IMG/VR virus record: IMGVR_UViG_2974628900_000001
Span: 60,305-124,304 of that record
Strand: one strand, 5' to 3'
Length of the DNA: 64,000 nucleotides
Origin: Streptomyces virus StarPlatinum
Taxonomy: Duplodnaviria; Heunggongvirae; Uroviricota; Caudoviricetes
This document shows, piece after piece, positions 17,263 through 57,109 of this stretch. Position 1 is the stretch's first letter; every line of letters starts with the position of its first letter. The translations under genes were made by a program, and so were the position numbers. The notes under the pieces were generated by a model. It saw only the letters and a list, made by a program, of their open reading frames with translations, made no database searches and was not told where the DNA came from.

Positions 17263-17436
17263 ATGGCTCTGTCAAAGCTATTTCCGGTGGGAACTCGGGT
17301 GAAGGTTACTCGTGGTTCTTACAAGAACAAGTACGGCAAGGTTACACTTGTGGGCGGCGATCATAAGATCGTCATCCTTGAAAGGGAAGGCACTCCGCTG
17401 TATGGTGTGAGTGACGAGATGGTTCAGAAGGCATGA
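17263..17436 (+). CDS. small KOW/SH3-like protein (family member)
   Basis: 57 aa, VGTRVKVTRGSYKNKYGKVTLVG KOW-like; starts 27 nt after tRNA-Ile; below 60-aa cutoff. Confidence 0.5.
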   Translation: MALSKLFPVGTRVKVTRGSYKNKYGKVTLVGGDHKIVILEREGTPLYGVSDEMVQKA

Positions 17437-17747
17437 TGAATCTGAATGAGCTAATGAAGTGCAGGCGTTGCCATCGACATGAGCCTTTGTGGTCCCATGC
17501 TTTGGGAACATTTTGCACTGAATGCGCACATCTGGCAGACAAGATCATGGATGATGATTGCAAGATTCTTGCGTTTCTTGCTTATGAAGTTCATGAGTTT
17601 GTCGAAGGAGATCTTGTCTGGGATCTTGAAACTGGAGATCACGGATACTTCTTCACGGAAGGATTGCAGTGCCATCATGTGCTAGTCGATGGCGAAATCC
17701 GTCAGTACAACAAGATGAACGTCTATCTCTCAAACGTGGAGGTCTAA
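17433..17747 (+). CDS. Cys/His-rich hypothetical protein
   Basis: 104 aa, CRRCHRHE...CTEC...C..HH. Confidence 0.45.
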   Translation: MMNLNELMKCRRCHRHEPLWSHALGTFCTECAHLADKIMDDDCKILAFLAYEVHEFVEGDLVWDLETGDHGYFFTEGLQCHHVLVDGEIRQYNKMNVYLSNVEV

Positions 17748-17923
17748 TGGACAGCAAGAAGGGTCTTGAAGTCGGGACAAAGGTCATTGTTGGTTCAGAC
17801 AAGAAGAAGGGTGAGATCTGGGAGCTTGGAACCAATCCAACTCTCGTTAAAGTTCTCATGAAGGAAGGACCCTGGGAGGGACAGGTTATGCTTGTCGTTC
17901 TTAAGCAGGTGAAGATTGCCTGA
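17747..17923 (+). CDS. small KOW/SH3-like protein (family member)
   Basis: 58 aa from ATG 17747 (TAATG overlap), VGTKVIVGSDKKKGEIWELG. Confidence 0.5.
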   Translation: MDSKKGLEVGTKVIVGSDKKKGEIWELGTNPTLVKVLMKEGPWEGQVMLVVLKQVKIA

Positions 17924-18125
17924 GTTCAAGTCAGGTGATATAATCAGAGTGAAGCCAGACAATCCGAAGATGCCCAAGAAGTATTGGAGGTTGACTGGAG
18001 TCATCGCTTCAAGGGAGACCTTTCTTGTTCGGAAGATATTTCGGACAGACTATCTTGTGATCATGCATGGTAGTTTGGAAGCTGCGACTTTCAAAGAAAG
18101 TGACATAGAGCTTTACCGCCCCTAA
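17916..18125 (+). CDS. small KOW/SH3-like protein (family member)
   Basis: 69 aa, SGDIIRVKPDNPKMPKKYWRLTGVI. Confidence 0.5.
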   Translation: MPEFKSGDIIRVKPDNPKMPKKYWRLTGVIASRETFLVRKIFRTDYLVIMHGSLEAATFKESDIELYRP

Positions 18126-18135
18126 CAGGGCACAT

Positions 18136-18220
18136 GGAAGGTAAGCGATTGGTTAGCAGGCGTCTTGGAAAGGCGCTAAGGGTGTCAAAGCCCGGCAGGG
18201 TTCAATTCCCTGGCCTTCCG
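18136..18220 (+). tRNA. tRNA-Ser (anticodon GGA), type II
   Basis: Acceptor ggaaggt/gccttcc, anticodon stem gcgtc/ggcgc, loop ttGGAaa, long variable arm, T-arm cagggTTCAATTccctg. Confidence 0.75.
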
Positions 18221-18231
18221 CTGGAGGTGCT

Positions 18232-18459
18232 ATGATTATCTGTGGCGACATGGTTCAAGTAAAGCACAACCGTGAGAATGTTGATCCTGCTTATTACGGT
18301 AAGCGTGGTCGGGTTCACAAGCGTACTCGATTTCTCAAGAGGCTCGGTGCCGGTGAGTACGAAATTATGTTCTTCGAAAGGGATCTCAATCATCCTATCA
18401 TGGGTGTAATGGGAGGATTCCTTGAGGAAGATCTAGAAGTTGTTGGCGGTAAGTGCTGA
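18232..18459 (+). CDS. small KOW/SH3-like protein (family member)
   Basis: 75 aa, GDMVQVKHNRENVDPAYYGKRGRVHK. Confidence 0.5.
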   Translation: MIICGDMVQVKHNRENVDPAYYGKRGRVHKRTRFLKRLGAGEYEIMFFERDLNHPIMGVMGGFLEEDLEVVGGKC

Positions 18460-18468
18460 CAGCTTTAT

Positions 18469-18556
18469 GGAGGCGTTAACGTTGGCAGTGTGGAGGGCTC
18501 TTGAAAAGCCCACGGTATAGTGATATGCCGCGAGAGTTCGAATCTCTCCGCCTCCG
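18469..18556 (+). tRNA. tRNA-Ser (anticodon TGA), type II
   Basis: Acceptor ggaggcg/cgcctcc, anticodon stem gggct/agccc, loop ctTGAaa, 20-nt variable arm. Confidence 0.8.
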
Positions 18557-18559
18557 CTT

Positions 18560-18590
18560 AGTCCGGTACATTATTGTGCCGGACTTTTTC
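18560..18590 (+). terminator. rho-independent terminator after tRNA-Ser
   Basis: AGTCCGG-12 nt loop-CCGGACT followed by TTTTT. Confidence 0.65.
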
Positions 18591-18601
18591 ATAGGAGCAC
18601 T

Positions 18602-18754
18602 ATGCTAAGAAAAGGAAAGAAACAAAAGGACTGCTATCACGTCAACGTGAGAAAGATCTACGGAGACGAGATTATCGCAGCCGGATTCAACAGAGCCTAT
18701 TGCTATGATTGCAAGAGGTTTTTGCCAACACTTCCGCCCGAAAGGACTAAATAA
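18602..18754 (+). CDS. small Cys-containing protein
   Basis: AGGAG RBS, 50 aa (MLRKGKKQKDCYHVN...CYDCKRF). Confidence 0.4.
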   Translation: MLRKGKKQKDCYHVNVRKIYGDEIIAAGFNRAYCYDCKRFLPTLPPERTK

Positions 18755-18969
18755 TGGCAATGAGCGATCAGGAAGAAGTTCGCTTTTACTACAGGCTTGT
18801 GCGTGAACTTCCTGAAAAGGAAAGGGCCTACAAGGAGATGCTTAAGAACATCCGTGGTCTTAAGGGTGCAGAAAAGGATAAGGCTTCAAGGAAAGCCCTT
18901 CCTTATGGCATGGAGATTGGTGGAATGAAGGAAACCATCAAGGCTCTAAAGAAGAAGCACAAGCTGTGA
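18754..18969 (+). CDS. hypothetical protein
   Basis: 71-aa charged ORF. Confidence 0.4.
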   Translation: MAMSDQEEVRFYYRLVRELPEKERAYKEMLKNIRGLKGAEKDKASRKALPYGMEIGGMKETIKALKKKHKL

Positions 18970-21638: not shown

Positions 21639-23267
21639 ATGTCCAACGCACTAACTAATGCCGCAAAGGCAACCAACAAGACTTCTCAGAATCTGCCAGC
21701 AAAGGCAGGACAGGTCAAGAACAACGCTGGTGGATTCGTCTTCCAGGTTTCTGATCAGTCTCGCCTTGAGCGATTTCTGATTCTTGGAACTGATGGAGGA
21801 ACGTATTACGTTTCTGAGGTTAACCACACTCAGTCAAACGTGACCTTCCTCAACGAGATGATTGCCCGAGACGAAGCCTCTGTACTGAACACAATCGTTG
21901 ATGTATCTGTCAATGGTCGTGCGTACAAGCAGTCTCCTGCCCTGTTCGCTCTAGCCTCTGTCATTGTCAACGGCAAGGATAAGCAGGCGGTCAAGGCGGT
22001 ATTCAACAAGGTCGTAAGGACTGCTACTCACCTCTACGAGGTAGTTAACTATCTTAACGAGCTTGGTGGATGGGGTCGCGCAAAGCGAGAAATCGTAGCT
22101 GGCTGGTTCGACAAGGACGCTGATAAGCTTGCTTATCAGGCTGTCAAGTATCGTTCCCGCACGTTCGGTGGAAACACCTGGACGCTACGAGACGTAATGC
22201 GAAAGGCTCACCCACAGAACGTTAACACGTCTGTTGCTGATTTCGTCCTAGGCAAGGAGCACGCGGCTGTAGATGACCTTCGGGTTATCGAGGGCTTCAA
22301 GCTTATGCAGAAGGCGGAGTCTGTAGAGGCTGTGCACGCAGTTCTGCGGGATTACGAGATGCTTAGCTGGGAGACCATTCCAACGCAGTTCCTCACGGAT
22401 GCTAGCGTTTGGAAGCGACTCTTTGCTAATGGTCAGCTTCGTGGTCAGGCTGCTGTTCGAAACATTACTCGCCTCGCGCGTATTGGTGCTTTCAAGGACA
22501 TGCGGTTCGCTGCGAACTTTGCTAGCCAGCTAGCGAATGAGGAAATGATTCGTCAATCTCGACTGCACCCAATTAACTTCCTTAACGCTGCCGTTGTTTA
22601 TGCCGATGGCCAGGTGGATCGAAAGAACATCTGGGGTGGACGTGTAAAGAACTGGGAGACTGAGGGTGTTATTGTCGATGCAATCGATGAGGCGTTCCAC
22701 AAGTCATTCAAGACCATTGAGCCAGCCGGTAAGAGGACGATGCTAGCCATCGACTGTTCCGGTTCAATGAGCACACAGGCTATGGGTCTCGACCTAAGCT
22801 GTGCGCAGGTTGCTGGCGCTATGGCAATGACCATTGCTCGTACTGAGCCAGCTCACATCATCCGTGGTTTCTCTTCCAAGGGATACAACTGGCGTGATAG
22901 CGGTATGGCCGAACTAAAGATCACCAGCCGTAGCTCTCTTGCTCAGGCAATGAGTGCAATGCGTGCGGTGAACTGGGGAGGCACAGACTGCTCACTTCCA
23001 ATGACGTGGGCGCTTGAGAATGGCGTAGAGGTTGACACCTTCGTCGTTATCACTGATAACGAGACGTGGGCTGGAAAGATTCACCCATTCCAGGCTCTTA
23101 AGAAGTACCGCAAGGAAATGGGAATTGACGCAAGGCTCGCTGTTCTAGGAGTCGCTTCAACTCCATTTACTATCGCTGATCCTAGCGATAGCGGCATGAT
23201 GGACTTCGTTGGCTTTGATAGCAACGCTCCACGTGTTCTTGCTGACTTCTCCGCAGGTCGCATCTGA
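21639..23267 (+). CDS. rsr: Ro60/Rsr-like ribonucleoprotein (TROVE domain + vWA domain)
   Basis: RLERFLILGTDGGTYY matches Ro60 signature RLHRFLCFGSEGGTYY; PALFALASV matches PMLFALAIC; C-terminal vWA MIDAS AIDCSGSM; 542 aa. Confidence 0.9.
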   Translation: MSNALTNAAKATNKTSQNLPAKAGQVKNNAGGFVFQVSDQSRLERFLILGTDGGTYYVSEVNHTQSNVTFLNEMIARDEASVLNTIVDVSVNGRAYKQSPALFALASVIVNGKDKQAVKAVFNKVVRTATHLYEVVNYLNELGGWGRAKREIVAGWFDKDADKLAYQAVKYRSRTFGGNTWTLRDVMRKAHPQNVNTSVADFVLGKEHAAVDDLRVIEGFKLMQKAESVEAVHAVLRDYEMLSWETIPTQFLTDASVWKRLFANGQLRGQAAVRNITRLARIGAFKDMRFAANFASQLANEEMIRQSRLHPINFLNAAVVYADGQVDRKNIWGGRVKNWETEGVIVDAIDEAFHKSFKTIEPAGKRTMLAIDCSGSMSTQAMGLDLSCAQVAGAMAMTIARTEPAHIIRGFSSKGYNWRDSGMAELKITSRSSLAQAMSAMRAVNWGGTDCSLPMTWALENGVEVDTFVVITDNETWAGKIHPFQALKKYRKEMGIDARLAVLGVASTPFTIADPSDSGMMDFVGFDSNAPRVLADFSAGRI

Positions 23268-24245: not shown

Positions 24246-24537
24246 CGAAAAGGAACTTGATGAGTTTGGCAGGCAGATCACTAATCCTGCCAAGTTTTAC
24301 AAGTGGTGTCGTGACTGCCGCCTCGCCCTGAATCGCAAGAAGCGAAACAATTTCGATGAAGGCCGAGAGCTTCGGTCAAAGACCATTCAGCTTCGTAAGC
24401 TGACCGATTCACAAGTGACAGAGGTCAAGCTTCTTGCCGAGTGGGATACTCCTTATTCAGAGATCGCTAGTCAATATGGTGTGTCTGTAACTACAATTTC
24501 AAAGGTCGTAAACAGAGGCTATGCAAACGTTTACTGA
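24220..24537 (+). CDS. zinc-ribbon + HTH putative transcription regulator
   Basis: CPVCG...CRDC then HTH-like YSEIASQYGVSVTTISKVVNRG. Confidence 0.5.
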   Translation: MKECPVCGNEKELDEFGRQITNPAKFYKWCRDCRLALNRKKRNNFDEGRELRSKTIQLRKLTDSQVTEVKLLAEWDTPYSEIASQYGVSVTTISKVVNRGYANVY

Positions 24538-24763
24538 CATGACTGGTCGCCTGCTGAATGTGGGCGATAAAGTCATTTTCGCTAGGCCACGAGGTGGCAA
24601 TTCAAATGGTGGAATACTGGACGCTGGCACTATTGTCAAGATCAATAGTGATTCAGGCGTGATTTCCATCCGTGTTGACAACGGTCCTAAGTCCAAGTAT
24701 GGTAAAAGGACAGTAGCCACTCCGTGGCACGAAAGAAAGTTCTATAAGCTGGAGGACCAGTGA
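24521..24763 (+). CDS. small KOW/SH3-like protein (family member)
   Basis: 80 aa, VGDKVIFARPRGGNSNGGILDAGTIVKI. Confidence 0.45.
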   Translation: MQTFTDMTGRLLNVGDKVIFARPRGGNSNGGILDAGTIVKINSDSGVISIRVDNGPKSKYGKRTVATPWHERKFYKLEDQ

Positions 24764-26480: not shown

Positions 26481-26556
26481 GCCCCGGTAGGATAGTCCGG
26501 TCCAATCCGCCAGACTCTCAATCTGGAGAACACGGGTTCAAATCCCGTTCGGGGTA
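26481..26556 (+). tRNA. tRNA-Glu (anticodon CTC)
   Basis: TTGACA-17-TAGACT promoter and AGCGC hairpin upstream; acceptor gccccgg/tcggggt, anticodon stem ccaga/tctgg, loop ctCTCaa. Confidence 0.7.
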
Positions 26557-26557
26557 C

Positions 26558-26806
26558 GTGCCAGCAAAGATACCAACCCAAATAGAAGCAAGAATAGTAG
26601 TGGCCATTTTAAGTGGAATCATCGGCGCACTACTACTAAGCTTCCTCTTAATGGGATGTATCGCTGAAAGCAATGAAACAAGCAAGATGAAAGCTTGTGT
26701 TTCTAAGAACATGGAGTGGGTAAACGCGCCCGGTGGCCCGGAGTGCAGGAAGCCACTTGACAGACTACCAGAACCAAGCTACAGTAGTACAAGTAAGCCA
26801 GAGTAA
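26558..26806 (+). CDS. putative lipoprotein
   Basis: GTG start; hydrophobic N-terminus ending in lipobox-like LLMGC. Confidence 0.4.
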   Translation: MPAKIPTQIEARIVVAILSGIIGALLLSFLLMGCIAESNETSKMKACVSKNMEWVNAPGGPECRKPLDRLPEPSYSSTSKPE

Positions 26807-27785: not shown

Positions 27786-27901
27786 AGGAGTGTAGTTTAA
27801 TTGGCAAAACCGCGAAATGCAATGTCGAAAGCGTCTGTGGCGTGAGCCCACGGTTAGTAGATATCAAAGTAGCAGTTGCGGGTTCGAGTCCCGTCACTCC
27901 G
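27786..27901 (+). ncRNA. tRNA-like element with about 40-nt internal insertion
   Basis: Acceptor aggagtg/cactcc (1:72 mismatch), D-arm GTTTAATTGGCAAAAC, canonical T-arm gcgggTTCGAGTcccgt, but 65 nt between D- and T-arms. Confidence 0.3.
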
Positions 27902-28041
27902 CTAGCCTGAGATGACGATCCGATGTAGGTCCCCTAGGGCTTGCGCAGGCCCGAAGGGCATTCGGGAAAGGTGCCTAGCTAGGTCCGTCTACCAACAAGG
28001 TGAGAGTTTTTCACGGTTTTCCTCATAATTAAACCGTGTTT

Positions 28042-30935: not shown

Positions 30936-31102
30936 CTGGCCGCCAAAGCTTGAGGAGATAGCTACCTCGGGCAAGGATAAACCGGATGGTAGGTCATAGT
31001 TTTCTAGATAAGCTATGACTGAGGACAAGGTGGAAACCCGGAGGCAAACCGGGGCACGGCCAACCACTTGACACAGTAGCTATCAACTACTAGGATGGAC
31101 AC

Positions 31103-31270
31103 ATGACAGAAAACGAAGGATACCTGGTTACCTCACGCGGGCTCTTTAAGGGTCTCTATAAGGATGAGGTAGTAATGAAGCAGGGTCGTCTGTGGGTCTG
31201 GTTCAAGCATGAAAATGGCAAGGAATGGGCTCTCCAGTGCCCTAACCAAATTGTAGTTGACACTGACTGA
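31103..31270 (+). CDS. small hypothetical protein
   Basis: TTGACA-17-TAGGAT promoter, AGGATGG RBS, 55 aa. Confidence 0.35.
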   Translation: MTENEGYLVTSRGLFKGLYKDEVVMKQGRLWVWFKHENGKEWALQCPNQIVVDTD

Positions 31271-33896: not shown

Positions 33897-33923
33897 CAAA
33901 GCAAGGTTGCAAACTTGCTCAAT

Positions 33924-33960
33924 CATGTTGGGGTTCGATTCCCTCTGGTGAAACAACATG
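33924..33960 (+). ncRNA. T-arm-containing stem-loop (tRNA fragment-like)
   Basis: 7-bp closing stem CATGTTG/CAACATG enclosing gggTTCGATTccc. Confidence 0.3.
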
Positions 33961-34021
33961 GTGTAATTGAGTAGGAAAAGGCGACGGCGGAATGAGCCGT
34001 GCTGTCTAGCCTCTCTCTTAT

Positions 34022-34095
34022 GATCCAGTCGCACAATTGGCCGTGCAATGGGCTCTTAACCCTTGTGAATGTGAGTTCGAGTCTCACCTGGATCA
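34022..34095 (+). tRNA. tRNA-Lys (anticodon CTT) paralogue
   Basis: Shares gggCTCTTAAcccttg anticodon arm and gtgagTTCGA(A/G)Tctcac T-arm with tRNA at 29175 but has a different D-arm; acceptor gatccag/ctggatc. Confidence 0.6.
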
Positions 34096-34096
34096 C

Positions 34097-34267
34097 GTGG
34101 CTAATAACAAGGTATGGAAGGTCGGGGACAAGGTAAAGTCCAACGACAACAAGTATAGTGGAACTGTCAACAAGATCATCGACGAAGGACATGTCAATGT
34201 CAACGTCACTGGTCATGGAGATATGCAATTTCGTAACAGGGAGCTAAAGCGCCAATTCAGGGGCTGA
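34097..34267 (+). CDS. small KOW/SH3-like protein (family member, GTG start abutting tRNA)
   Basis: GTG 2 nt after tRNA 3' end (caCGTGGCT); 56 aa, VWKVGDKVKSNDNKYSGTVNKIIDEG. Confidence 0.45.
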   Translation: MANNKVWKVGDKVKSNDNKYSGTVNKIIDEGHVNVNVTGHGDMQFRNRELKRQFRG

Positions 34268-34275
34268 GGCTCTAT

Positions 34276-34350
34276 GATTCCTTAGCTCAGTTGGTAGAGC
34301 ACCAGACTTTTAATCTGTTGTGGTCCTCGGTTCGAGTCCGAGAGGAATCA
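34276..34350 (+). tRNA. tRNA-Lys (anticodon TTT)
   Basis: Perfect acceptor gattcct/aggaatc, anticodon loop ctTTTaa. Confidence 0.75.
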
Positions 34351-34351
34351 C

Positions 34352-34504
34352 GTGGCTTACAAAACGAATGATATAGTGAAGATAATAGAAGGTCCGCACA
34401 AGGGGAAGTCGGGTATAGTTCAAGGCAAGGCTGGCAAGACTTACATTGTGAGAACCAACTCAGGGACGTTCTACGTGCACGAGAATCATTTGAAAGAGGC
34501 ATAA
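34352..34504 (+). CDS. small KOW/SH3-like protein (family member, GTG start abutting tRNA)
   Basis: GTG 2 nt after tRNA (caCGTGGCT again); 50 aa, NDIVKIIEGPHKGKSGIVQGKAGKTYIV KOW motif. Confidence 0.45.
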   Translation: MAYKTNDIVKIIEGPHKGKSGIVQGKAGKTYIVRTNSGTFYVHENHLKEA

Positions 34505-35780: not shown

Positions 35781-35849
35781 AGCGGATTAGTGAAACGGTA
35801 TCACGCGAGGCTCATAATCTCGTATTCCTGTTCGAATCAGGGTCCGCCC
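35781..35849 (+). tRNA. tRNA with CAT anticodon and 1:72 mismatch (initiator-like or Ile2)
   Basis: Same D-arm as previous (GTGAAACGGTATCAC), anticodon stem cgagg/tctcg, loop ctCATaa; terminal acceptor pair unpaired. Confidence 0.55.
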
Positions 35850-35930
35850 CCACGTGATAGTGAAAGGAAGCATCATACCGATGCGATACGATTAAACTCC
35901 TTCTACCGTAAAAAGTAGAAGGAGGTGCAA

Positions 35931-36420: not shown

Positions 36421-36492
36421 GGTTGCAAGCCAGGGATAAGCTAGGCGGGCCTGTAAAGCCCTACCTCGTTGGTTCGAATCCAACTGCAACCA
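36421..36492 (+). tRNA. tRNA, class I body with anticodon GTA (tentative)
   Basis: Perfect acceptor ggttgca/tgcaacc, T-arm gttggTTCGAATccaac, anticodon loop ctGTAaa with 4-bp stem. Confidence 0.45.
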
Positions 36493-39243: not shown

Positions 39244-39522
39244 GGGGATGCCTTGGTTTCGACTGGGGTGGATGACTTTAGTTTGCAGCCTGACATTGAG
39301 GAGATGTCATTAAAAAGCCTCAAACCTATAAATGCCAACTCTAACGTTGCATCTGCCTACGCCCTAGCGGCGTGATGGCCGGGCGGCGACTGCCTAGGAA
39401 CAGAAAGTTGCGAATGTTTGGCCCGGTGGGGATAAACACATCGTAGTATCTGCTTGACACATGGCTGTGTATAGACTACTGTTTGAAGCATCAGGACGCG
39501 GGTTCGACTCCCGCCATCTCCA
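39244..39522 (+). ncRNA. ssrA: tmRNA (SsrA), tag peptide (A)NSNVASAYALAA
   Basis: 5' GGGGATGCCTTGGTTTCGACTGGGG and 3' GGACGCGGGTTCGACTCCCGCCATCTCCA parallel E. coli tmRNA ends; G3:U70 in acceptor; internal ORF GCC AAC TCT AAC GTT GCA TCT GCC TAC GCC CTA GCG GCG TGA. Confidence 0.85.
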
Positions 39523-39535
39523 CTTAAGGATCATC

Positions 39536-39850
39536 ATGAACTTGACAGGTCGCTCCACTATGGTAGACTTCGATCTGAGCGAGCAAGACGCTCGAACGAT
39601 TCAGAAGAGCATGCGAACTGGTCCTGTGACTCTCAAGGTTACTAGGATTCAGATCAGCTACACATACGGCGCGGTGCTTGTTGGCCTTGATCGTAACCCT
39701 GGCCCTCACTACAAGGTGAGAGTATCAGGATATCGAATGAAGGCTGGCATGAAGCAACGTGATACTGTTGTTCAGCACAGCTATCTTAACCCTGACCTGC
39801 CAGACTGGCTTGAGCAGATGGTTGTTGACAACGCTCCCAACTGGTACTAG
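39536..39850 (+). CDS. hypothetical protein
   Basis: AAGGA RBS; 104 aa; start placed after tmRNA 3' end. Confidence 0.45.
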   Translation: MNLTGRSTMVDFDLSEQDARTIQKSMRTGPVTLKVTRIQISYTYGAVLVGLDRNPGPHYKVRVSGYRMKAGMKQRDTVVQHSYLNPDLPDWLEQMVVDNAPNWY

Positions 39851-39859
39851 GATGTAAAC

Positions 39860-40084
39860 ATGCCGAAATGGATGCGACTTCCGGGAACGGATAAGGAAGC
39901 CAGCCTTAGTGATAGGGTTGGCTCTGCCTTCGAAAATGGTTATGGCGATGAAGGCCCTTTGGCCAAGGGAATCGTCATTGGAGGATGTGTTTTCCTCCCT
40001 CTCATAGTTACTCTTGGCATCTTTGGTGGTGCTGCGTATGGACTCTGGAGGCTTGCCGAATGGCTCTGGACTATGATAGCCTGA
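39860..40084 (+). CDS. membrane protein
   Basis: 74 aa with C-terminal hydrophobic helices. Confidence 0.45.
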   Translation: MPKWMRLPGTDKEASLSDRVGSAFENGYGDEGPLAKGIVIGGCVFLPLIVTLGIFGGAAYGLWRLAEWLWTMIA

Positions 40085-41801: not shown

Positions 41802-41872
41802 ACTATGATTATAAACTATGACCCTGGTTAAGTAGCTTGACAAGCTACACTACAACAACTAGGATGTGATGT

Positions 41873-42169
41873 ATGGCTACCATCAAGGAACGCGGAACCG
41901 ACAAGTGGAACATGAGCAAGGCGACTCGTCGCAGTGCCCGCAACTTTGTCGAGCGTGAGAAGGTTGGCAAGGCTAAGAAGAAGAACACTCGCAAGTGGTG
42001 CAAGGGTAAGGAAGGGCGTAAGCACACTCTCGCTCTTTACAACAAGTACACCTGGCGTCACGGATACAAGTGCTTCAAGTGCAGCAAGGAATTCTACTTC
42101 CCCATCAACCGCGAGGACTTTGACTTCGTTGAGCGCAAGTGGGAAGATGACTACAACTGGGGCAACTGA
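41873..42169 (+). CDS. basic Cys-containing protein
   Basis: TTGACA-17-TAGGAT promoter; 98 aa, Lys/Arg-rich, CKGK...CFKC. Confidence 0.45.
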   Translation: MATIKERGTDKWNMSKATRRSARNFVEREKVGKAKKKNTRKWCKGKEGRKHTLALYNKYTWRHGYKCFKCSKEFYFPINREDFDFVERKWEDDYNWGN

Positions 42170-43001: not shown

Positions 43002-44078
43002 ATGAAGTTCACCAAGATCTTCTCACAGGAGCTGCTTGACGAGATGATCTCAGAGGGCTATGTCCGGGCGCAATTTCATCCGGTTCTGCCTCTCAAGATT
43101 CTCAACTACTCCGAGAAGACTCAGTTCGCTGGAAAGTGGAATGACTGCACGCTTAACTGTCGTGGATTGATCGTTGACCTTGACGGCAACTTGATTGCTC
43201 GTCCTTTCATGAAGTTCTTCAACTTGGGTGACTCTCAGTCTGCACAACTTGACTGGGATGCTCCGGTTGAGGTTACGGACAAGAAGGACGGCTCAATGGG
43301 GGTTCTGTACTCATACGGCGGTGATTGGGCAATTGCGACTCGCGGCTCATTCATGTCAGACCAGGCGATTCACGGAACTCGTGTGCTAAATGAGCGTTAC
43401 AGCCACATCCAGTTTGTCTCAGACTACACTTTCATCTTCGAGATCGTTTACCCTGAGAACAGGATTGTTCTGGACTACGGTTCAATGGACGACCTGATTC
43501 TTCTGGGTGCGGTTCACAAGGAGTACGGTTACGTCTGCGGCCCTCTGGAGGCTCAGGCAATTGTTAATTGGGACGGGCCGGTGACGGAGGTCTTCAATTA
43601 CAACTCATTGCGTGAGGCGGCTGGAGCGCAGTACAGGAAGAACGCAGAGGGTTTCGTAGTCCGCTCTGGCAACAAGATGGTCAAGATCAAGCAGGCAGAT
43701 TACGTTGAGCTGCACCGCATGATCTCCATGCTTTCAGAGCGTTCTGTATGGAGCCAGCTCACCGAGGGCAAGACGATTCTTGAGATTTGTGAGGCACTGC
43801 CTGACGAGTTTCACGGGTTTGTCAAGGACGTTGGTGGCAAGCTTCTCACTGACTACGAGCGCATCGAGGTCGAGGTTTACGGTATCTACCAGAACCTTCT
43901 GACTTCTTTGGGCGAGGGTTTCACGCGACGTGACTTCGCAATGGCCGCAAACCGAATCGATCTCTACAGGTCTCACATGTTCAACCTGCTTGACGGGAAG
44001 AGCATCAATGAGCTAATCTGGAAGCAGATCAGGCCGGAGGCCAAGCGAGAGGACGTACACCCTACCAATGCAGGCTAA
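43002..44078 (+). CDS. rnlA: RNA ligase 1 (T4 RnlA-like) tRNA repair ligase
   Basis: NCRGLIVDLDGNLIARPFMKFFNLGD matches T4 Rnl1 ECRGIMFEMDGE..RPMEKFFNLNE; motif I KxDGS (TDKKDGSMG); FEIVYPENRIVLDY; motif V KMVKIKQADY. Confidence 0.85.
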   Translation: MKFTKIFSQELLDEMISEGYVRAQFHPVLPLKILNYSEKTQFAGKWNDCTLNCRGLIVDLDGNLIARPFMKFFNLGDSQSAQLDWDAPVEVTDKKDGSMGVLYSYGGDWAIATRGSFMSDQAIHGTRVLNERYSHIQFVSDYTFIFEIVYPENRIVLDYGSMDDLILLGAVHKEYGYVCGPLEAQAIVNWDGPVTEVFNYNSLREAAGAQYRKNAEGFVVRSGNKMVKIKQADYVELHRMISMLSERSVWSQLTEGKTILEICEALPDEFHGFVKDVGGKLLTDYERIEVEVYGIYQNLLTSLGEGFTRRDFAMAANRIDLYRSHMFNLLDGKSINELIWKQIRPEAKREDVHPTNAG

Positions 44079-44826: not shown

Positions 44827-45723
44827 GTGAAGATGCAGCTTCTCATCCTCCGGGGCGTTCCCGGTTGTGGTAAGAGCACCTGGGCACATGACGTGTGGCT
44901 GAGGGAAAACCCGAATGGTGTTCGAGTCAATCGTGATGACATTCGTATGCAGCTCTTTGGCCGGGAGACCGGAGTAGACGAGGAGCTTGTCACTCGAATT
45001 GAGCACGGAATGGTTGATGGGGCTCTGGCAAAGGGCTACTCAGTCATTGTCGATGACACGAACATCCGACACAAGTACATCAAGGAATTCGTAAAGATCG
45101 GTCAGCGTCACGGCGCTAGCGTTGCTGTAAAGCAGTTCGACGTTCCTCTTGAGACGGCAATTGCTCGAAACAAGGCTCGTGCCGAGTCCGGTGGTCGAGA
45201 TGTTCCTGAGTCTGTGATTCGTAGAATGCATCAGTCCCTTAAGTCTAGTGGAGTCTTCACTGATTTCCACACAGACGTTACGGCCGTTCGTCCTTACGAG
45301 CGTCCCGAAGGTGCAGAGAAGGTTTACCTCTTTGACATCGACGGAACTCTTGCTGAGATGAACAATCGTGATCCCTTCAATTGGAGGGAAGTTGGGACGG
45401 ATGATCCACGACGACAGGTGATCCTTACTGCTCAGGCTCACGCCAAGGCGGGATACAAGATCATCGTTATGAGTGGACGAGACGGCTCATGTCGCAATGG
45501 AACAATCGCTTGGCTGGATCTGTACGACATTCCTTTCTCAGAATTGCACATGCGTGCTGAGGGGGATATGCGTAAGGACTCCATCGTCAAGCAAGAGTTG
45601 TTCGATGAGCACATTCGAGACATCTACGATGTTGTGGCTGTCTACGATGATCGTCAGCAGGTTGTTGACATGTGGCGTGCGATGGGCATAGACTGTTTCC
45701 AGGTAGCACCCGGAAACTTCTGA
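44827..45723 (+). CDS. pnk: polynucleotide kinase / 3'-phosphatase (T4 Pnk-like)
   Basis: P-loop GVPGCGKSTWA, RVNRDDIR, HAD phosphatase motif LFDIDGTLAEMN, C-terminal QVVDMWRAMGIDCFQVAPGNF matches T4 [21 protein letters not shown]. Confidence 0.9.
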   Translation: MKMQLLILRGVPGCGKSTWAHDVWLRENPNGVRVNRDDIRMQLFGRETGVDEELVTRIEHGMVDGALAKGYSVIVDDTNIRHKYIKEFVKIGQRHGASVAVKQFDVPLETAIARNKARAESGGRDVPESVIRRMHQSLKSSGVFTDFHTDVTAVRPYERPEGAEKVYLFDIDGTLAEMNNRDPFNWREVGTDDPRRQVILTAQAHAKAGYKIIVMSGRDGSCRNGTIAWLDLYDIPFSELHMRAEGDMRKDSIVKQELFDEHIRDIYDVVAVYDDRQQVVDMWRAMGIDCFQVAPGNF

Positions 45724-46662: not shown

Positions 46663-47061
46663 ATGGGACTAATGGATTTCCTCACCGGAGTTGGCAATCC
46701 TCTAAGTGCGACTTCACGCGCTGGACGGAAGCTAGAGAATGAAGCGCTTCGGTGGGCGTGTAATCGATGCAAGCTAAATACTCCGTATTACGTCCGAGCT
46801 GAGATTGCTGATAAGCATAAGGCTACTTATGCTGGCACCAATCCTGACGGATATGTTTACATGGAGTATGTCTTCACCAAGAAGAGTCTGGTTCACAAGA
46901 TTCCAATGACTGATTATGGAACTCGTGCAAATCAGATTTACTACTACTACAATGGTGAAATCACCGATAGGCGTCCGAAGAACTATCTGACAAAGAAGCA
47001 GCTCCGGGAGCTTGAGGCTCGCATCATGAAGGAGTGTCAGGAAGGTTTCACCTTCGACTGA
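46663..47061 (+). CDS. hypothetical protein
   Basis: 132-aa ORF. Confidence 0.45.
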   Translation: MGLMDFLTGVGNPLSATSRAGRKLENEALRWACNRCKLNTPYYVRAEIADKHKATYAGTNPDGYVYMEYVFTKKSLVHKIPMTDYGTRANQIYYYYNGEITDRRPKNYLTKKQLRELEARIMKECQEGFTFD

Positions 47062-47222
47062 TGGCAGAGTACACAAAGGGCGATAAGGTTGAATTTATCC
47101 GAGGTCGCCTAGATGGTAAAAGGGGTAAGGTCAAGTTCGTCACCGCTCATGGCAAGTTGCTTGTTGACTTGAATGAGGGCGGAGATGTATACTGTAACCC
47201 AGAAGATGTTAAGCCTGCGTAA
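47061..47222 (+). CDS. small KOW/SH3-like protein (family member)
   Basis: 53 aa, KGDKVEFIRGRLDGKRGKVKFVTAHG. Confidence 0.45.
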   Translation: MAEYTKGDKVEFIRGRLDGKRGKVKFVTAHGKLLVDLNEGGDVYCNPEDVKPA

Positions 47223-47231: not shown

Positions 47232-47313
47232 GCGCCCATGGTGGAATGGCAGACACACTAGGCTGAGACCCTAGGCTCGAATGAGCGTCCGAGTTCGATT
47301 CTCGGTGGGCGTA
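47232..47313 (+). tRNA. tRNA-Leu (anticodon GAG), type II
   Basis: Acceptor gcgccca/tgggcgt, anticodon stem ctagg/cctag, loop ctGAGac, 14-nt variable arm; GCCTGC-gtaa-GCAGGC hairpin upstream. Confidence 0.75.
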
Positions 47314-47314
47314 C

Positions 47315-47518
47315 ATGGCAAAATACAGAGTAGGCCAGCAAATTGTTGTAACACAATTTGTTCAGAAGGGCGTTGAGTATGCCGGACGCCGAGGCTTTGT
47401 TGAGATTGTAGAGAGCCGAGGACGATATACGGTCCTCCTTTATGAAACAGAGTACAATGGGATCAAAGTCCCTGAATGCACTATCGATGTCAGGGAAAAC
47501 AACATCCGAAAAGCTTAA
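47315..47518 (+). CDS. small KOW/SH3-like protein (family member)
   Basis: ATG 2 nt after tRNA-Leu; 67 aa, VGQQIVVTQFVQKGVEYAGRRGFV. Confidence 0.45.
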   Translation: MAKYRVGQQIVVTQFVQKGVEYAGRRGFVEIVESRGRYTVLLYETEYNGIKVPECTIDVRENNIRKA

Positions 47519-48431: not shown

Positions 48432-48624
48432 ACATGAAGTAAGAGTTGCCATGATTGTTGCGTCTGTGTTCATCGCACTGTTTGCGACAATTGGAATTGC
48501 TGTCAACTACAATGATTACCTAAAGAATCAGACCATCCAGAAGTGTATTGCTTCTGACAAGGTCTGGGGCGAGGGCTCCTGTGTTGACAACGTAGAAGAT
48601 CTCAAGTATATTGATAATGACTGA
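48424..48624 (+). CDS. small membrane protein
   Basis: 66 aa, N-terminal TM helix, Cys pair. Confidence 0.4.
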   Translation: MDKHEVRVAMIVASVFIALFATIGIAVNYNDYLKNQTIQKCIASDKVWGEGSCVDNVEDLKYIDND

Positions 48625-48644
48625 TCAAAGGCCGCAAGGCCGAT

Positions 48645-48718
48645 GGCCCTGTAGCAGAATGGCATATGCGGCGGTCTCAAACACCGCGTCAATGTGGGTT
48701 CGAGTCCCATCAGGGCTA
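48645..48718 (+). tRNA. tRNA, class I body with anticodon CAA (Leu-like anticodon)
   Basis: Acceptor ggccctg/cagggct, perfect anticodon stem gcggt/accgc, loop ctCAAac, 6-nt variable loop; GGCC-gcaa-GGCC hairpin upstream. Confidence 0.55.
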
Positions 48719-48719
48719 C

Positions 48720-48947
48720 ATGGAATATACACTAGGTAAGGCACCGAAGGGTTACGAGTGGTCTCTTGAGCATGCAGATGGAGATCCGCTATTCACTGGT
48801 CGCAAAGGAACAACTTACGGAATCATTGTGACCAAGAATGGCAAGTTTGTAGAACGTCGAGGGGTATTTGTTCCAGCGGAGAGCGAGAAGGACACACAGT
48901 CCTTTATCACCGCAATGGAAGAAAGCCTTCGTCAGTCTCTTAAGTGA
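48720..48947 (+). CDS. small KOW/SH3-like protein (family member)
   Basis: ATG 2 nt after tRNA; 75 aa, GRKGTTYGIIVTKNGKFVERRGV. Confidence 0.45.
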   Translation: MEYTLGKAPKGYEWSLEHADGDPLFTGRKGTTYGIIVTKNGKFVERRGVFVPAESEKDTQSFITAMEESLRQSLK

Positions 48948-54213: not shown

Positions 54214-54462
54214 ATGTACTTTGATGACGAGTATTCAACAGCAGAATGCATAAAGGATCTCACAAAGAGCATCTGGATTACCATCAAGCTTGTGTTGAGA
54301 TCAGAAGCAACTCCGGAAGAAATTTCCGGTGCTGCTGAAAGGGCCAAATTTCTGCGGCTCTATATAACGAGGTATCACAATAAGAGAATGACAGCATTGA
54401 CTGATACCGAGATCTGGCTTGCACAGGAAGTGGCCGAAGCTGTTGAAGATCTGATTGATTGA
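54214..54462 (+). CDS. hypothetical protein
   Basis: 82-aa ORF after TTGAC..RBS GGGAGGA. Confidence 0.45.
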   Translation: MYFDDEYSTAECIKDLTKSIWITIKLVLRSEATPEEISGAAERAKFLRLYITRYHNKRMTALTDTEIWLAQEVAEAVEDLID

Positions 54463-54487
54463 CTTTTAACTCATCAGTGATTACAAT

Positions 54488-54895
54488 TTGCATATGTCCA
54501 AGATATCAGCAGTTCTAGTCAAGGCTTACGCGCATCCCCTCGTGATTATCGAGGTGATCATAGCTGTTGGTCTTTTGGTCTCCGGATTGTATACGATGAG
54601 TTGGTTGTATCAGCCTAGTTCCACTACACCTTTGGGCGTGGCAATTGATTCAACTTACGTGAGAATGACCATTGGTGCTTTCTATGCTTCCTCCGCACTA
54701 GCGATTATGGCCGGTGCTAAAAGAGACAAGCGAACACTAGAGGCAACAGGTCTATTTATGGCATCACTGAGCTATGGGTTCATGACATTGCTCAGATGGC
54801 TAACAATTGGGTTCGTACCTTTGACATGGGTATTCAGCCTTACTCTTATGCTCATCGTGGCATTCCTATACTTTAGGATAAGGTTGCTGAGATGA
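54488..54895 (+). CDS. membrane protein (about 4 TM helices)
   Basis: 135 aa strongly hydrophobic. Confidence 0.5.
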   Translation: MHMSKISAVLVKAYAHPLVIIEVIIAVGLLVSGLYTMSWLYQPSSTTPLGVAIDSTYVRMTIGAFYASSALAIMAGAKRDKRTLEATGLFMASLSYGFMTLLRWLTIGFVPLTWVFSLTLMLIVAFLYFRIRLLR

Positions 54896-55225: not shown

Positions 55226-55417
55226 ATGCAAACAGTTGCGGAACGTCCGCTAAAGAAGACAGAAGATCGTTGCGACAAGTGCAACGCTCAGGCATTCGTA
55301 ATTGCAGAAAAGGGAGATCTGGCCCTTCTCTTCTGCGGGCATCATGGCAAGCAATACAAGCAATCACTTGAAGTAAAGGGATGGAGTCTACTAGACTTCA
55401 CAGACGAGATCGGATGA
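55226..55417 (+). CDS. small Cys/His protein
   Basis: 63 aa, CDKC...CGHH. Confidence 0.4.
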   Translation: MQTVAERPLKKTEDRCDKCNAQAFVIAEKGDLALLFCGHHGKQYKQSLEVKGWSLLDFTDEIG

Positions 55418-55420
55418 TCA

Positions 55421-55636
55421 ATGGGTTACATCGAAGTATGGGTAGATGAAGAGGAATTCGAAGAAGGGTTCCTTGACGCACTGCGTGACGGCGAGTATGA
55501 TGAACATGTAAGGCAGAGGGCAGAGGCAATCGGCCTCGACTTCTCCATAGCTCAAAAGTTCCATGAGATGCTTCACCCGCAGGGCACCTTGACAATCGAA
55601 CGTTGTCGTGAGTATCCTTGTAACGAAGCCACTTGA
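55421..55636 (+). CDS. hypothetical acidic protein
   Basis: 71-aa ORF. Confidence 0.4.
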   Translation: MGYIEVWVDEEEFEEGFLDALRDGEYDEHVRQRAEAIGLDFSIAQKFHEMLHPQGTLTIERCREYPCNEAT

Positions 55637-55649
55637 TGAAGGGCAAAAC

Positions 55650-55925
55650 ATGAAGGTCACACGAACGCAAAGTAAGCGGCCCAATGGCAGTGTTGGACCG
55701 GTCAGGTTCTCATTTGAGATCAAGGTAGAGGGCGAGTCTGGTCAGAACACCAGAGCGCGAGCAATCGCACAAGCTGATGCGGAAGCCTGGTGTAGGGAAA
55801 TGCGCGCCAGCGGCCTGGTCTTTCAGTTTGAGCAGATAGATGACGGTTGGACTAAGCCAGGTCAGATGATTTACATTGCCTACTTTGGCACAGACCTTTG
55901 GCTGGAGAAGGGACCCGGCGAATGA
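55650..55925 (+). CDS. hypothetical protein
   Basis: 91 aa from internal ATG. Confidence 0.4.
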   Translation: MKVTRTQSKRPNGSVGPVRFSFEIKVEGESGQNTRARAIAQADAEAWCREMRASGLVFQFEQIDDGWTKPGQMIYIAYFGTDLWLEKGPGE

Positions 55926-56365
55926 GTAAGTTTGAGATCGGAACCATTGTTGTTCTCAAGAATGACCCCGAAGCGGGCGTAGGCTGGGAAGACTTGCGCT
56001 GTGAGGTAATCGAGAATGACGCGAAGCCTGGATACATGTGGGTTCAGCCTCTGTCTGATCGCCCTGATGGATTCGGAAACTCTCGATTCTTCTGGAAGAC
56101 ACGATTCATGAAGATTGATTCTGACACTCTTCCCCAAGAGGGTAATGAATCAATGCCAATCGGTACTCGCGTGATGATCGTGAACTCTTACGAGGAGATT
56201 CACGCAAAGCCGTTCCTTGAGAAGTGGCAAGGTCTTGTTGGCCGAACAACAGCAAGGCCGTTCAATGGTAAGGTCCGAATGAAGCTTGATGGTCCTCGAC
56301 CTGACGGAATCAACATCGATTCAAATGATTTCTTCTGGAATCTCAGTGGTCTGATGACTGACTGA
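55922..56365 (+). CDS. tandem-repeat small beta-barrel (KOW/SH3-like, RPDG motif) protein
   Basis: Two internal repeats IGTIVVLKNDPEAG...RPDGFGNSRFFW and IGTRVMIVNSYEE...RPDGINIDSNDFFW. Confidence 0.5.
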   Translation: MSKFEIGTIVVLKNDPEAGVGWEDLRCEVIENDAKPGYMWVQPLSDRPDGFGNSRFFWKTRFMKIDSDTLPQEGNESMPIGTRVMIVNSYEEIHAKPFLEKWQGLVGRTTARPFNGKVRMKLDGPRPDGINIDSNDFFWNLSGLMTD

Positions 56366-56386
56366 TCCAGTGCCCTTCGGGGCTAT

Positions 56387-56466
56387 TCCCCAGTTGCTCT
56401 GTTTGGCAGGGGCCGCCTGACTTTGAATCAGGATTAGCGACGTAGGTTCGAATCCTACCTGGGGAG
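56387..56466 (+). tRNA. tRNA with anticodon TTG (Gln?) and long variable region
   Basis: Perfect acceptor tccccag/ctgggga, anticodon stem cctga/tcagg, loop ctTTGaa, 9-nt variable; GCCC-UUCG-GGGC hairpin upstream. Confidence 0.55.
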
Positions 56467-56485
56467 CTTTCTATTTGGAGGGCAA

Positions 56486-56659
56486 ATGAGGTGGGATAGG
56501 TACAGATTTTCCTGGGGCAACGAAGGCCACGTTACCGTAGAACTTCTTGCCAGTGGAAAGGTAATCAATCAGTTCACAATTGACGATGTTGATTGTGACA
56601 ATTTCATTTCCGATCTAGTAAAGTCTCGCAAGCAGGCCAAGCGAGCAAAGAGGAACTGA
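56486..56659 (+). CDS. small hypothetical protein
   Basis: GGAGGG RBS; 57 aa; TGATG overlap with next gene. Confidence 0.4.
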   Translation: MRWDRYRFSWGNEGHVTVELLASGKVINQFTIDDVDCDNFISDLVKSRKQAKRAKRN

Positions 56660-56904
56660 TGGTTGCTGTATTCAGCTTTAATGATCCAAAGGGTAAGCCT
56701 GTCAACAAGGTTGACTTCGTAAAGATTAAGGGTGCACCCATTCGACTGCGTAAGTGGAATGGTGTGGTGGGAATGGTCATGAGCGTTCCGCTTCCTGACG
56801 GCACAGTCCTTCTCTCCATTGAGAAGAATAAGCCGAGGGACTACGATCAGCGGATTGTTTACATTCCGACTCAGTACCTACATCTTGACCAGAAGAGGAC
56901 TTGA
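56659..56904 (+). CDS. small beta-barrel-like protein (RPDG-family relative)
   Basis: 81 aa, VDFVKIKGAPIRLRKWNGVVGMVMSVPLPDGTVLL. Confidence 0.45.
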   Translation: MVAVFSFNDPKGKPVNKVDFVKIKGAPIRLRKWNGVVGMVMSVPLPDGTVLLSIEKNKPRDYDQRIVYIPTQYLHLDQKRT

Positions 56905-56914
56905 TTTGAAAGAC

Positions 56915-57109
56915 ATGGCTGGCAACACACTGTATGGCAACAGCACAGTAGAGCTGTACCATGATGGGCCATGGCATGGCTTCCAGGCAAAAGTATTAAA
57001 TAGGCGCGGGGAAAACCTCGTCTGGCTTTCTCCATTAGCTCCTAGGCCCGATGGAAACGGCATGAACAAGTTCGTATGGCCACTGGACAGGTTGACGGTG
57101 GTCGGATAA
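56915..57109 (+). CDS. small beta-barrel-like protein (RPDG motif)
   Basis: 64 aa from internal ATG; LSPLAPRPDGNGMNKFVWPL parallels repeats in 55922..56365. Confidence 0.4.
   Translation: MAGNTLYGNSTVELYHDGPWHGFQAKVLNRRGENLVWLSPLAPRPDGNGMNKFVWPLDRLTVVG

Follow-up and report, generated by a model that had tools for sequence, protein, structure and literature searches.

Start codons adjoining tRNA 3′ ends and families of small SH3-like barrel proteins in the tRNA-rich arm of Streptomyces phage StarPlatinum

The genome of Streptomyces phage StarPlatinum has an arm in which tRNA genes alternate with small open reading frames (ORFs), and at several places a start codon follows the end of a tRNA directly. 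What do these ORFs encode, and how might a coding sequence that begins at a tRNA 3′ end be expressed? We studied a stretch of 64,000 nucleotides (nt), hereafter the window, and in it 12 candidate ORFs between positions 17263 and 57109 that a preliminary description of the DNA had presented as one expanded family of KOW/SH3-like barrel proteins. The window is 100% identical to the Streptomyces phage StarPlatinum record MH576965.1 (record position = window position + 60304), a phage of cluster BE (Stanwilliamsviridae, Boydwoodruffvirinae, genus Karimacvirus) with a G+C content of 49%. ARAGORN predicted 42 tRNAs and one transfer-messenger RNA (tmRNA) in the window, all on the + strand between 12563 and 56467, and the tRNA genes are interspersed with ~110 coding sequences (CDS), mostly small. 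We propose, with a probability of roughly 60%, that the region encodes barrel miniproteins of three families that act as adaptors of host machinery and that several of them are expressed from tRNA-punctuated leaderless mRNAs. The exact junction between tRNA and start codon is a more surprising and more testable feature than the set of proteins, and we describe it first.

In front of the ORFs gp176, gp178, gp221 and gp228, the tRNA ends with the discriminator base N73 and C74, and the start codon occupies the next base. Three ORFs had earlier been said to start 2 nt after a tRNA 3′ end; the junction is real, but four of the candidates have it. StarPlatinum contains five such zero-gap junctions (26557/26558, 34096/34097, 34351/34352, 47314/47315 and 48719/48720), and the sequence ATCAC/GTGGCT, previously noted as occurring twice in identical form, is indeed present at the second and third of them. 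We counted ORF starts around the 163 tRNAs of StarPlatinum, Riptide, LilMartin and Bmoc, accepting only ATG and GTG as start codons, ORFs of at least 40 amino acids (aa) and offsets from -12 to +40. An ORF began at offset 0 after C74 at 27 of the 163 tRNAs, each other offset having 0-4 cases, and the chance expectation for a zero-gap start at a random + strand position is ~0.65 per genome. One zero-gap ORF with a TTG start (46 aa, after the tRNA-Trp of Riptide) falls outside the 27; TTG makes up 9% of annotated starts. Comrade, which represents the sister subfamily Loccivirinae, has no more than 2 such junctions among its 24 tRNAs when the ORF must reach 40 aa. Comrade was used as the outside control in place of Shaeky, whose 16 tRNAs are contiguous and have no interleaved ORFs.

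The Rfam model for tRNAs stops at the discriminator N73, one base short of the ARAGORN prediction. This additional base is a C in 41 of the 42 StarPlatinum tRNAs (with 3′ ends at, e.g., 12634, 17237 and 34096), and the base following C74 is never a C, except in a single tRNA with the full CCA (tRNA-Met, 35781-35852). A C without the rest of CCA after the discriminator was similarly found in 37-39 of the 40-41 tRNAs of the relatives and in 23 of the 24 tRNAs of Comrade. The C74-only ends suggest a specific requirement in 3′ processing or CCA completion.

The junctions are conserved in some places and shift in others. After tRNA-Leu(gag), a zero-gap ORF of 63-67 aa was present in all eight genomes examined, and its start codon is ATG in StarPlatinum, LilMartin and the genomes L014 and L016 and GTG in Riptide, Bmoc, L015 and L017; the junction after tRNA-Leu(caa) is likewise fixed in position with an interchange of ATG and GTG. 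As a separate observation on the first of these slots (47315-47518 in the window; 36096-36299 in L002, 35395-35598 in L003 and 34846-35049 in L004), phmmer does not recover the Riptide and LilMartin versions of the ORF as homologs of the StarPlatinum/Bmoc type, and all versions keep a barrel-like N-terminal pattern; either the slot is evolving fast or the ORF has been replaced there. Elsewhere, gp120 is led by a Shine-Dalgarno (SD) sequence in StarPlatinum (GGAGG with a 10-nt spacer) and has a zero gap in Riptide, and gp178 is zero-gap in StarPlatinum and LukeCage-like genomes and directly follows gp176 in Riptide and Bmoc. The ortholog of gp219, which overlaps the stop codon of gp218 in StarPlatinum, is abutted at its start codon in Wofford (L016, 2927-3165) by a tRNA-Leu(taa) that StarPlatinum lacks at this place. 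New tRNA genes seem to be acquired at positions immediately before start codons.

Barrel ORFs are not the only ones with this junction. tRNA-Glu(ctc) is followed with a zero gap by the ORF of a membrane protein, tRNA-His by a lipoprotein-like ORF and tRNA-Ser(gct) by a Cys-rich one, and various ORFs follow tRNA-Arg(cct) and tRNA-Gln(ttg) in the same manner. In the case of tRNA-Glu(ctc), the Riptide and Bmoc orthologs of gp145 are annotated as a membrane protein starting from the base after the tRNA, and the start of gp145 in StarPlatinum has probably been called too far downstream (Table 1). A rule placing the start codon at C74 + 1 can thus correct start annotation, gp145 being an example. 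Where an ORF lies between two tRNAs, the next tRNA begins 6-10 nt past its stop codon.

The two tRNA-Lys genes with their GTG-started ORFs had been described as a duplicated module. Only the layout is repeated: the similarity in a DNA alignment is confined to the tRNA and the first 6 bases of the ORF, the tRNAs are different isoacceptors (ctt and ttt), and gp176 and gp178 have no BLASTP similarity, for which reasons we rejected a duplication. The orthologs of gp176 in Riptide and Bmoc are placed after tRNA-Lys(ttt).

The zero-gap geometry suggests tRNA-punctuated leaderless mRNAs. In the mechanism that we envisage, a transcription unit would have the order promoter-tRNA-ORF-tRNA, with the promoter 33-40 nt before the tRNA. 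Host RNase P, together with an endonuclease for the 3′ side (either tRNase Z or RNase E), would excise the flanking tRNAs and leave a leaderless mRNA starting with AUG or GUG, having a 5′-monophosphate and almost no trailer, and the actinobacterial ribosomes would translate the released mRNA well. C74, kept directly before the start codon, would mark the cleavage site, and the production of phage tRNAs would be coupled to that of small factors acting on the translation or transcription machinery. Published work on Actinobacteria is relevant to this mechanism. In mycobacteria, AUG or GUG at the very start of any mRNA suffices for leaderless translation, and other codons fail (PMC4633059). Streptomyces coelicolor has both RNase E and tRNase Z as well as 264 mRNAs with leaders of <10 nt, and mapping in this species placed processing sites just 3′ of tRNAs without encoded CCA, “within a few nucleotides downstream” (PMC4681348).

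We searched for promoters with the pattern TTGAC[AT]-N16-18-TANNNT and found, within window positions 7809-60390, 44 sites on the + strand and 3 on the - strand. tRNA-Leu(gag), tRNA-Leu(caa) and tRNA-Glu(ctc) each have such a promoter-like site 33-40 nt before them, and many sites are found 11-96 nt before tRNA genes; because they are so frequent upstream of tRNAs, the arm apparently consists of many short transcription units rather than one long operon. In the motif map, no site was placed between a tRNA and its zero-gap ORF. We also considered, and rejected, that a leaderless transcript might arise from a promoter within the tRNA, since no TANNNT is found 6-8 nt upstream of the zero-gap starts. 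That geometry does occur elsewhere in the window: in five cases, a -10 box has its end 7-8 nt ahead of an ATG with a weak or no SD, and the corresponding genes gp165, gp200, gp206, gp247 and gp261 are predicted to be classical leaderless genes made by transcription initiation. Leaderless mRNAs formed in this way in Actinobacteria share with the proposed ones the AUG/GUG rule and the capacity of the host to translate them; they carry a triphosphate, whereas the 5′ end at a zero-gap junction would come from RNA processing and be a monophosphate.

As an alternative, the unprocessed tRNA-mRNA precursor could itself be the template for translating the zero-gap ORFs, with SD-like purine runs in the T-arm or acceptor of the tRNA recruiting the ribosome and tRNA maturation competing with translation. 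The energies of pairing with the anti-SD sequence bear on this. All CDS had a median of -6.4 kcal/mol and random 17-mers one of -2.8, and the five zero-gap starts gave -3.1, -5.6, -3.1, -4.5 and -9.9, the value for gp176 being -3.1 and the last one that of gp178. Pairing is thus at the background level at four of the five junctions, and at all five the upstream sequence is locked inside the tRNA fold; gp178 alone has an SD-like sequence, GAGAGGA, located in the acceptor strand of the tRNA 5 nt before the start codon. The alternative also accommodates cleavage a small number of nucleotides downstream from the tRNA, as in S. coelicolor, which would clip the start codon off a processed mRNA. On the other hand, a spacing dictated by SD sequences would be flexible, and the concentration of 27 starts at offset 0 against no more than 4 at any other offset is not what it predicts. 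We consider translation from the precursor unlikely and favor release of the mRNA by tRNA excision.

The closest known parallel is the tRNA punctuation of animal mitochondrial transcripts, reportedly described by Ojala, Montoya and Attardi in 1981. The two arrangements share the near absence of spacers between ORFs and tRNAs and the prediction of leaderless mRNAs through the action of RNase P and tRNase Z. They differ in that StarPlatinum is a bacterial phage, that only ~15-20% of its tRNAs are involved, that C74 separates the start codon from the discriminator, and that promoters are frequent; processing in the phage is a prediction. As a tentative proposal, to which we give somewhat less than even odds, BE-cluster phages may use tRNA punctuation of a bacterial-virus kind that couples tRNA output to the output of miniproteins, KOW/SH3-like barrels among them. 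If true, this would be the first phage case of mRNA 5′ ends set by tRNA excision and a natural test of whether processed leaderless mRNAs with a 5′-monophosphate are translated in Actinobacteria.

For the proteins, the first question is whether the ORFs are genes at all. All 12 are open at the coordinates given to them and annotated as CDS for a “hypothetical protein” in MH576965.1 (gp115, gp117, gp118, gp120, gp138, gp176, gp178, gp219, gp221, gp228, gp252 and gp256); the sole difference in coordinates is the start of gp256, TTG at 56906 in the record and ATG at 56915 in the candidate list. The ORFs exist as described, but their lengths range from 50 to 147 aa rather than the 50-80 aa first stated. 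The conservation in related phages, whose absence would have counted against the preliminary description, is there: orthologs of every ORF occur among the Samistivirus phages Riptide, LilMartin and Bmoc, in one or more of the three. The proportion of nonsynonymous differences (pN) is far below that of synonymous differences (pS), and the ratio of the corresponding substitution rates (dN/dS) is 0.04-0.5 where dS is unsaturated. The lowest value, 0.04, was obtained for both gp228 and gp118; compared with Bmoc, gp118 shows pN 0.11 and pS 0.74, and gp221 retains 91% aa identity at a pS of 0.82. Because pN is so far below pS, we conclude that the candidate ORFs are protein-coding genes under purifying selection and not spacers. 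One could otherwise regard the ORFs between tRNAs as nonfunctional, being spacers or chance ORFs kept as processing spacers or for holding ribosomes on the transcript, and the very short length of the ORFs and the restriction of their homologs to one phage lineage would fit this. The substitution pattern, the confident structure models, the KOW motif of some of the proteins and the conservation across genera bring that explanation close to refutation, and we regard it as extremely improbable.

A second question is whether the ORFs form one family. The core motif Gx(D/K)V.V...GK.G.V, which all of them were said to share, fits none of the 12 in its literal form, and its relaxed halves fit 4 of the 12 each, for which reason we turned to profile methods. 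Pairwise BLASTP among the ORFs of the window gave only 3 weak links and is too insensitive here. We therefore aligned 68 ortholog groups of small ORFs from the window all against all with hhalign (2278 pairs) and repeated this with deeper alignments. The top 10 of the 2278 pairs all connect candidate ORFs or gp255, a barrel-family member at 56659-56904 that was absent from the original list. The motif is thus an idealized consensus, and the similarity of the ORFs is real at the profile level.

The profile links resolve into families. Family A consists of gp115, gp178 and gp219, with mutual hhalign probabilities of 94-96% and paralog identities of 20-34%, and family B of gp118 and gp120 (95.8% over 61 columns). 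In family D, the two halves of gp252 and gp256 are linked at ~100%, and gp256 matches gp252 in BLASTP with an E value of 1.2e-5; the tandem repeat reported in gp252 accordingly holds up as two family-D domains. The link of gp255 to the N-terminal domain of gp252 (93.5%) and to the C-terminal one (90.3%) joins family C to family D, and gp138 matches gp255 at 87.5%. Other links across families are weaker: gp118-gp255 (B to C) reached 66% and gp118-gp178 (B to A) 46%, and gp221, gp117 and gp176 attach weakly to gp219 (38%), the C-terminal domain of gp252 (26%) and gp219 (21%), respectively. No profile link was found between gp228 and any other candidate ORF, and hidden Markov model (HMM) searches over all ORFs of the window gave no additional family members. 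Judging from these profiles, old duplications gave rise to three lineage-specific families (A, B and C/D), and gp228 is something else. The description as one expanded family did not survive: there are three sequence families and orphans, the ORFs with a PHROG match each land in a separate PHROG (gp138 in PHROG 2251, E value 3.7e-7), the Pfam KOW model is blind to B, C and D, and gp228 is unlinked. In total, we count at least 10 barrel miniproteins in three families, three probable members (gp117, gp176 and gp221) and one nonmember (gp228).

We then asked which of the proteins are barrels and which can be called KOW. With the Pfam KOW model (PF00467, gathering cut-off 22.3 bits), gp178 scored above the cut-off (25.1 bits), gp115 just under it (21.9) and gp219 lower (13.0); gp117, gp118, gp120, gp138, gp176, gp221, gp228, gp252, gp255 and gp256 gave no KOW match even at E ≤1. 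A profile of 12 family A sequences matched the KOW domains of Spt5 (best 8e-12), bacterial uL24 (~1e-4) and the C-terminal domain of NusG (1.5e-3) in the PDB, where sequence-profile searches with families B, C and D gave nothing significant. AlphaFold2 (AF2) models, made for families B and D, showed confident folds, with the five-stranded, strongly bent antiparallel barrel of the SH3-like type (about 55-70 residues) superposing on known members. The proposed KOW/SH3-like barrel is thus right at the level of the fold for A (by sequence) and for B and D (by structure models), is probable for family C, which profiles join to D, is a candidate assignment for gp117, gp176 and gp221, and is unsupported for gp228. 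Only family A is KOW by sequence, and the other ORFs should not be filed under that name.

The similarity to uL24 invites the explanation that gp178 and its paralogs are phage versions of this ribosomal protein, built into host ribosomes. Besides the profile match to bacterial uL24, existing labels point that way: the Riptide ortholog of gp178 is annotated as “ribosomal protein uL24” in a 2025 genome announcement (PV654398; PMC12509530), and some homologs are named “ribosomal protein L24” in JGI. However, the phage proteins are 50-57 aa long and consist of the KOW barrel alone, against 100-115 aa for uL24; the match covers the first ~25-40 residues; Spt5 KOW domains, and not uL24, match best in the PDB and Pfam, with the NusG C-terminal domain matched as well; and there are three paralogs with 20-34% identity. 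Being half the length of uL24 and closer to Spt5 KOW, they are unlikely to be a literal replacement of it, and we hold the uL24 explanation to be quite improbable. The identification of gp178 (50 aa) as a full-length uL24 was rejected as its match extends over about residues 1-40 of the 100-115 aa chains and Spt5 KOW scores better; membership in NusG/Spt5 was not accepted either, the protein being a single barrel without an NGN match in Pfam.

The association of the ORFs with tRNAs must be separated from the density of the arm. Nine of the 12 candidates directly adjoin a tRNA, as do 36 of the 98 other CDS (P = 0.013), and 4 of the 12 are the sole ORF between two tRNAs compared with 2 of the 98 others (P = 0.001), but these P values are optimistic because the ORFs were picked partly for that property. 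The claim that most of the candidates sit directly next to tRNAs is borne out with the same reservation. A more skeptical explanation is that the candidates are a mixture of unrelated ORFans that share a common barrel, without a common function or a link to tRNAs, and that their closeness to tRNAs is a by-product of the dense packing of an accessory arm, where 45 of 110 CDS have a tRNA next to them. The separate PHROGs, the lack of a Pfam match for B, C and D and cross-family hhalign probabilities of only 21-66% agree with this, as do the zero-gap junctions before membrane and other proteins and the change of gp120, gp178 and gp219 between zero-gap and other arrangements from phage to phage. 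Similar barrels are also widespread: the model of gp120 has 779 structural matches in BFVD, nearly all to uncharacterized phage proteins of 60-100 aa, often several per phage and from unrelated phages, and SH3-like miniproteins are clearly common in phages. Opposed to a mere mixture are the ten best of the 2278 profile pairs, all of which involve the candidates, the clear paralogy within families and the enrichment between two tRNAs, post hoc as it is. We find the mixture less probable than not, although it deserves more weight than any other rival explanation considered here, and retain the three families as the preferred reading.

The families have a narrow distribution. In searches of large databases, we found 36 homologs of family A (among 5.8 billion clusters), 24 of B and 6 of D, and an exhaustive HMMER search of 1.84 billion proteins with gp138 and gp255 gave 4 real representatives of family C and 3 spurious matches to bacterial Ig/cadherin repeats. 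Where informative, the homologs of all four lie on BE-like phage contigs of ~120-135 kb, and scans of IMG/VR with single proteins gave 3-9 close relatives each. In Comrade, a sampled region of 41.5 kb around the Ro-like gene, which includes much of the tRNA region, contained one KOW member and no member of B, C or D; with this single KOW member, the expansion appears specific to Boydwoodruffvirinae. The system had been said not to be a standard annotated one. This holds only in part: gp178 and gp219 already carry the name “KOW domain-containing protein” in UniRef, and the Riptide ortholog of gp178 its uL24 label. New here are the number and paralogy of the proteins in one arm and the mode of expression of some of them.

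Compared with known barrel proteins, family A shares a motif and a profile match with the KOW domains of NusG/Spt5 and uL24 (PF00467). The phage proteins are distinct from these in being free-standing at 50-80 aa or a tandem pair, in having neither an NGN domain nor the C-terminal extension of uL24, and in occurring as several paralogs per phage; B and C/D lack the KOW signature. Other small SH3-like barrels, such as PsaE, NdhS, OapB, YorP of prophage SPbeta, Tudor and PWWP, have no detectable sequence relation to families B, C and D. OapB is a KOW-like protein that binds OLE RNA, and across this group the partners range over RNA, proteins and methyl-lysine, so that function cannot be transferred from them. 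The barrels in BFVD, for example those of the Pseudomonas phages pf16 and phiPMW and the Streptomyces phage Ibantik, have the same fold and size and often occur several per genome, whereas the sequence families A-D are confined to BE-like Streptomyces phages.

What the barrels do can be proposed by analogy. They are most likely small adaptors that act on host RNA or on the transcription or translation machinery during takeover, with the ribosome, RNA polymerase and termination factors as candidate partners. A free KOW barrel is similar to the portion of NusG/Spt5 docking on ribosomal protein S10 or on Rho and to that of uL24 docking on 23S rRNA. In the version that we prefer, though with little confidence, the free KOW barrels would work in the manner of an isolated C-terminal domain of NusG/Spt5 or N-domain of uL24; by binding to S10, Rho or rRNA, they would shift the coupling of host transcription and translation or the working of the ribosome. 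A role with the machinery or with nucleic acids is made plausible by the KOW identity of family A, by structural neighbors that bind RNA, ribosomes or RNA polymerase, by the basic charge and by the context of translation and RNA repair genes; the isoelectric point (pI) is at least 9.2 in 8 of 13 proteins, the small proteins of the region having a median pI of 6.3. Should the partners of the proteins be ribosomes, RNA polymerase, Rho, NusE or RNA, a small, lineage-specific set of tools would be at hand, with which a phage of 49% G+C could reprogram the expression of a high-GC host, alongside its 42 tRNAs, the tmRNA, a Ro60-like protein and RNA-repair enzymes. A free-standing KOW protein of 50 aa would also be a minimal model of the transcription-translation coupling module.

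Several observations weigh against the combined reading of barrel adaptors and tRNA-punctuated mRNAs. The barrel says little on function because it is among the commonest small folds, as the BFVD matches demonstrate, and the weaker cross-family links are restricted to the N-terminal ~30 residues, such that A, B and C/D could be convergent and not homologous. At the junctions, a tRNase Z cut after N73 would leave a C before the start codon and thus a 1-nt leader, downstream cuts at a distance of a few nucleotides could remove the start codon, and some zero-gap frames remain open into the tRNA. The strong SD-like sequence before gp178 and the post hoc choice of ORFs behind the adjacency statistics belong to the same side.

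Table 1. Coordinates of the barrel candidates, zero-gap units, RNA-related genes and -10 box sites of genes with classical leaderless geometry in the window
Feature	Position	Strand	Remarks
gp115, 57 aa, family A	17263..17436	+	25 nt after tRNA-Ile(tat), with Shine-Dalgarno; orthologs in Riptide, LilMartin, Bmoc; dN/dS 0.17-0.5
gp117, 58 aa, orphan with weak barrel-like motif	17747..17923	+	conserved in relatives; dN/dS 0.05-0.37
gp118, 69 aa, family B, TTG start	17916..18125	+	directly upstream of tRNA-Ser(gga)
gp120, 75 aa, family B	18232..18459	+	between tRNA-Ser(gga) and tRNA-Ser(tga)
gp138, 80 aa, family C	24521..24763	+	no adjoining tRNA
tRNA-Lys(ctt) 34022-34096, zero gap, gp176 34097-34267 (GTG, 56 aa, pI 10)	34022..34267	+	next tRNA 8 nt past stop
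tRNA-Lys(ttt) 34276-34351, zero gap, gp178 34352-34504 (GTG, 50 aa), family A	34276..34504	+	next tRNA 7 nt past stop
gp219, 53 aa, family A	47061..47222	+	directly upstream of tRNA-Leu(gag); internal promoter-like site 47164-47193
tRNA-Leu(gag) 47232-47314, zero gap, gp221 47315-47518 (ATG, 67 aa)	47232..47518	+	zero-gap junction
promoter-like TTGACA-17-TATATT 48584-48612, tRNA-Leu(caa) 48645-48719, zero gap, gp228 48720-48947 (75 aa)	48584..48947	+	tRNA-Ser(gct) 6 nt past stop
gp252, 147 aa, two tandem family-D domains	55922..56365	+	upstream of tRNA-Gln(ttg)
gp255, 81 aa, family C	56659..56904	+	hhalign links C to D
gp256, 67 aa, family D, single domain	56906..57109	+	BLASTP and hhalign matches to gp252
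tRNA-Glu(ctc), zero gap, 82-aa ORF from GTG 26558	26481..26806	+	not barrel-related; gp145 annotated in frame from 26651 (51 aa)
Ro60-like protein (TROVE and vWA domains)	21639-23267		RNA-centered gene set
RNA ligase	43002-44078		RNA-centered gene set
Polynucleotide kinase	44833-45723		RNA-centered gene set
Nucleotidyltransferase with weak RlaP match	14433-14954		RNA-centered gene set
tmRNA	39244-39523	+	RNA-centered gene set
gp165	31068-31105 (site with the -10 box)		classical leaderless geometry by -10 box spacing
gp200	39825-39862 (site with the -10 box)		classical leaderless geometry by -10 box spacing
gp206	41837-41875 (site with the -10 box)		classical leaderless geometry by -10 box spacing
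gp247	54459-54496 (site with the -10 box)		classical leaderless geometry by -10 box spacing
gp261	58385-58422 (site with the -10 box)		classical leaderless geometry by -10 box spacing

The surroundings of the barrel genes are rich in functions centered on RNA (Table 1), and a DnaQ-like exonuclease is also annotated in the tRNA-rich arm. An Rfam scan for a Y RNA beside the Ro-like gene gave no match at the gathering score. Rfam reported two additional, weak tRNA-like matches that ARAGORN does not call, at 27786-27902 (117 nt; 33.6 bits) and 14972-15048 (30.3 bits), and the GenBank record has a second tRNA-Tyr at 36421-36492 that is reported by neither program. Finally, the spacer at 33898-34021, between two tRNA-Lys(ctt) genes, holds the T-arm-like sequence GGGGTTCGATTCCC and may be a decayed tRNA copy.

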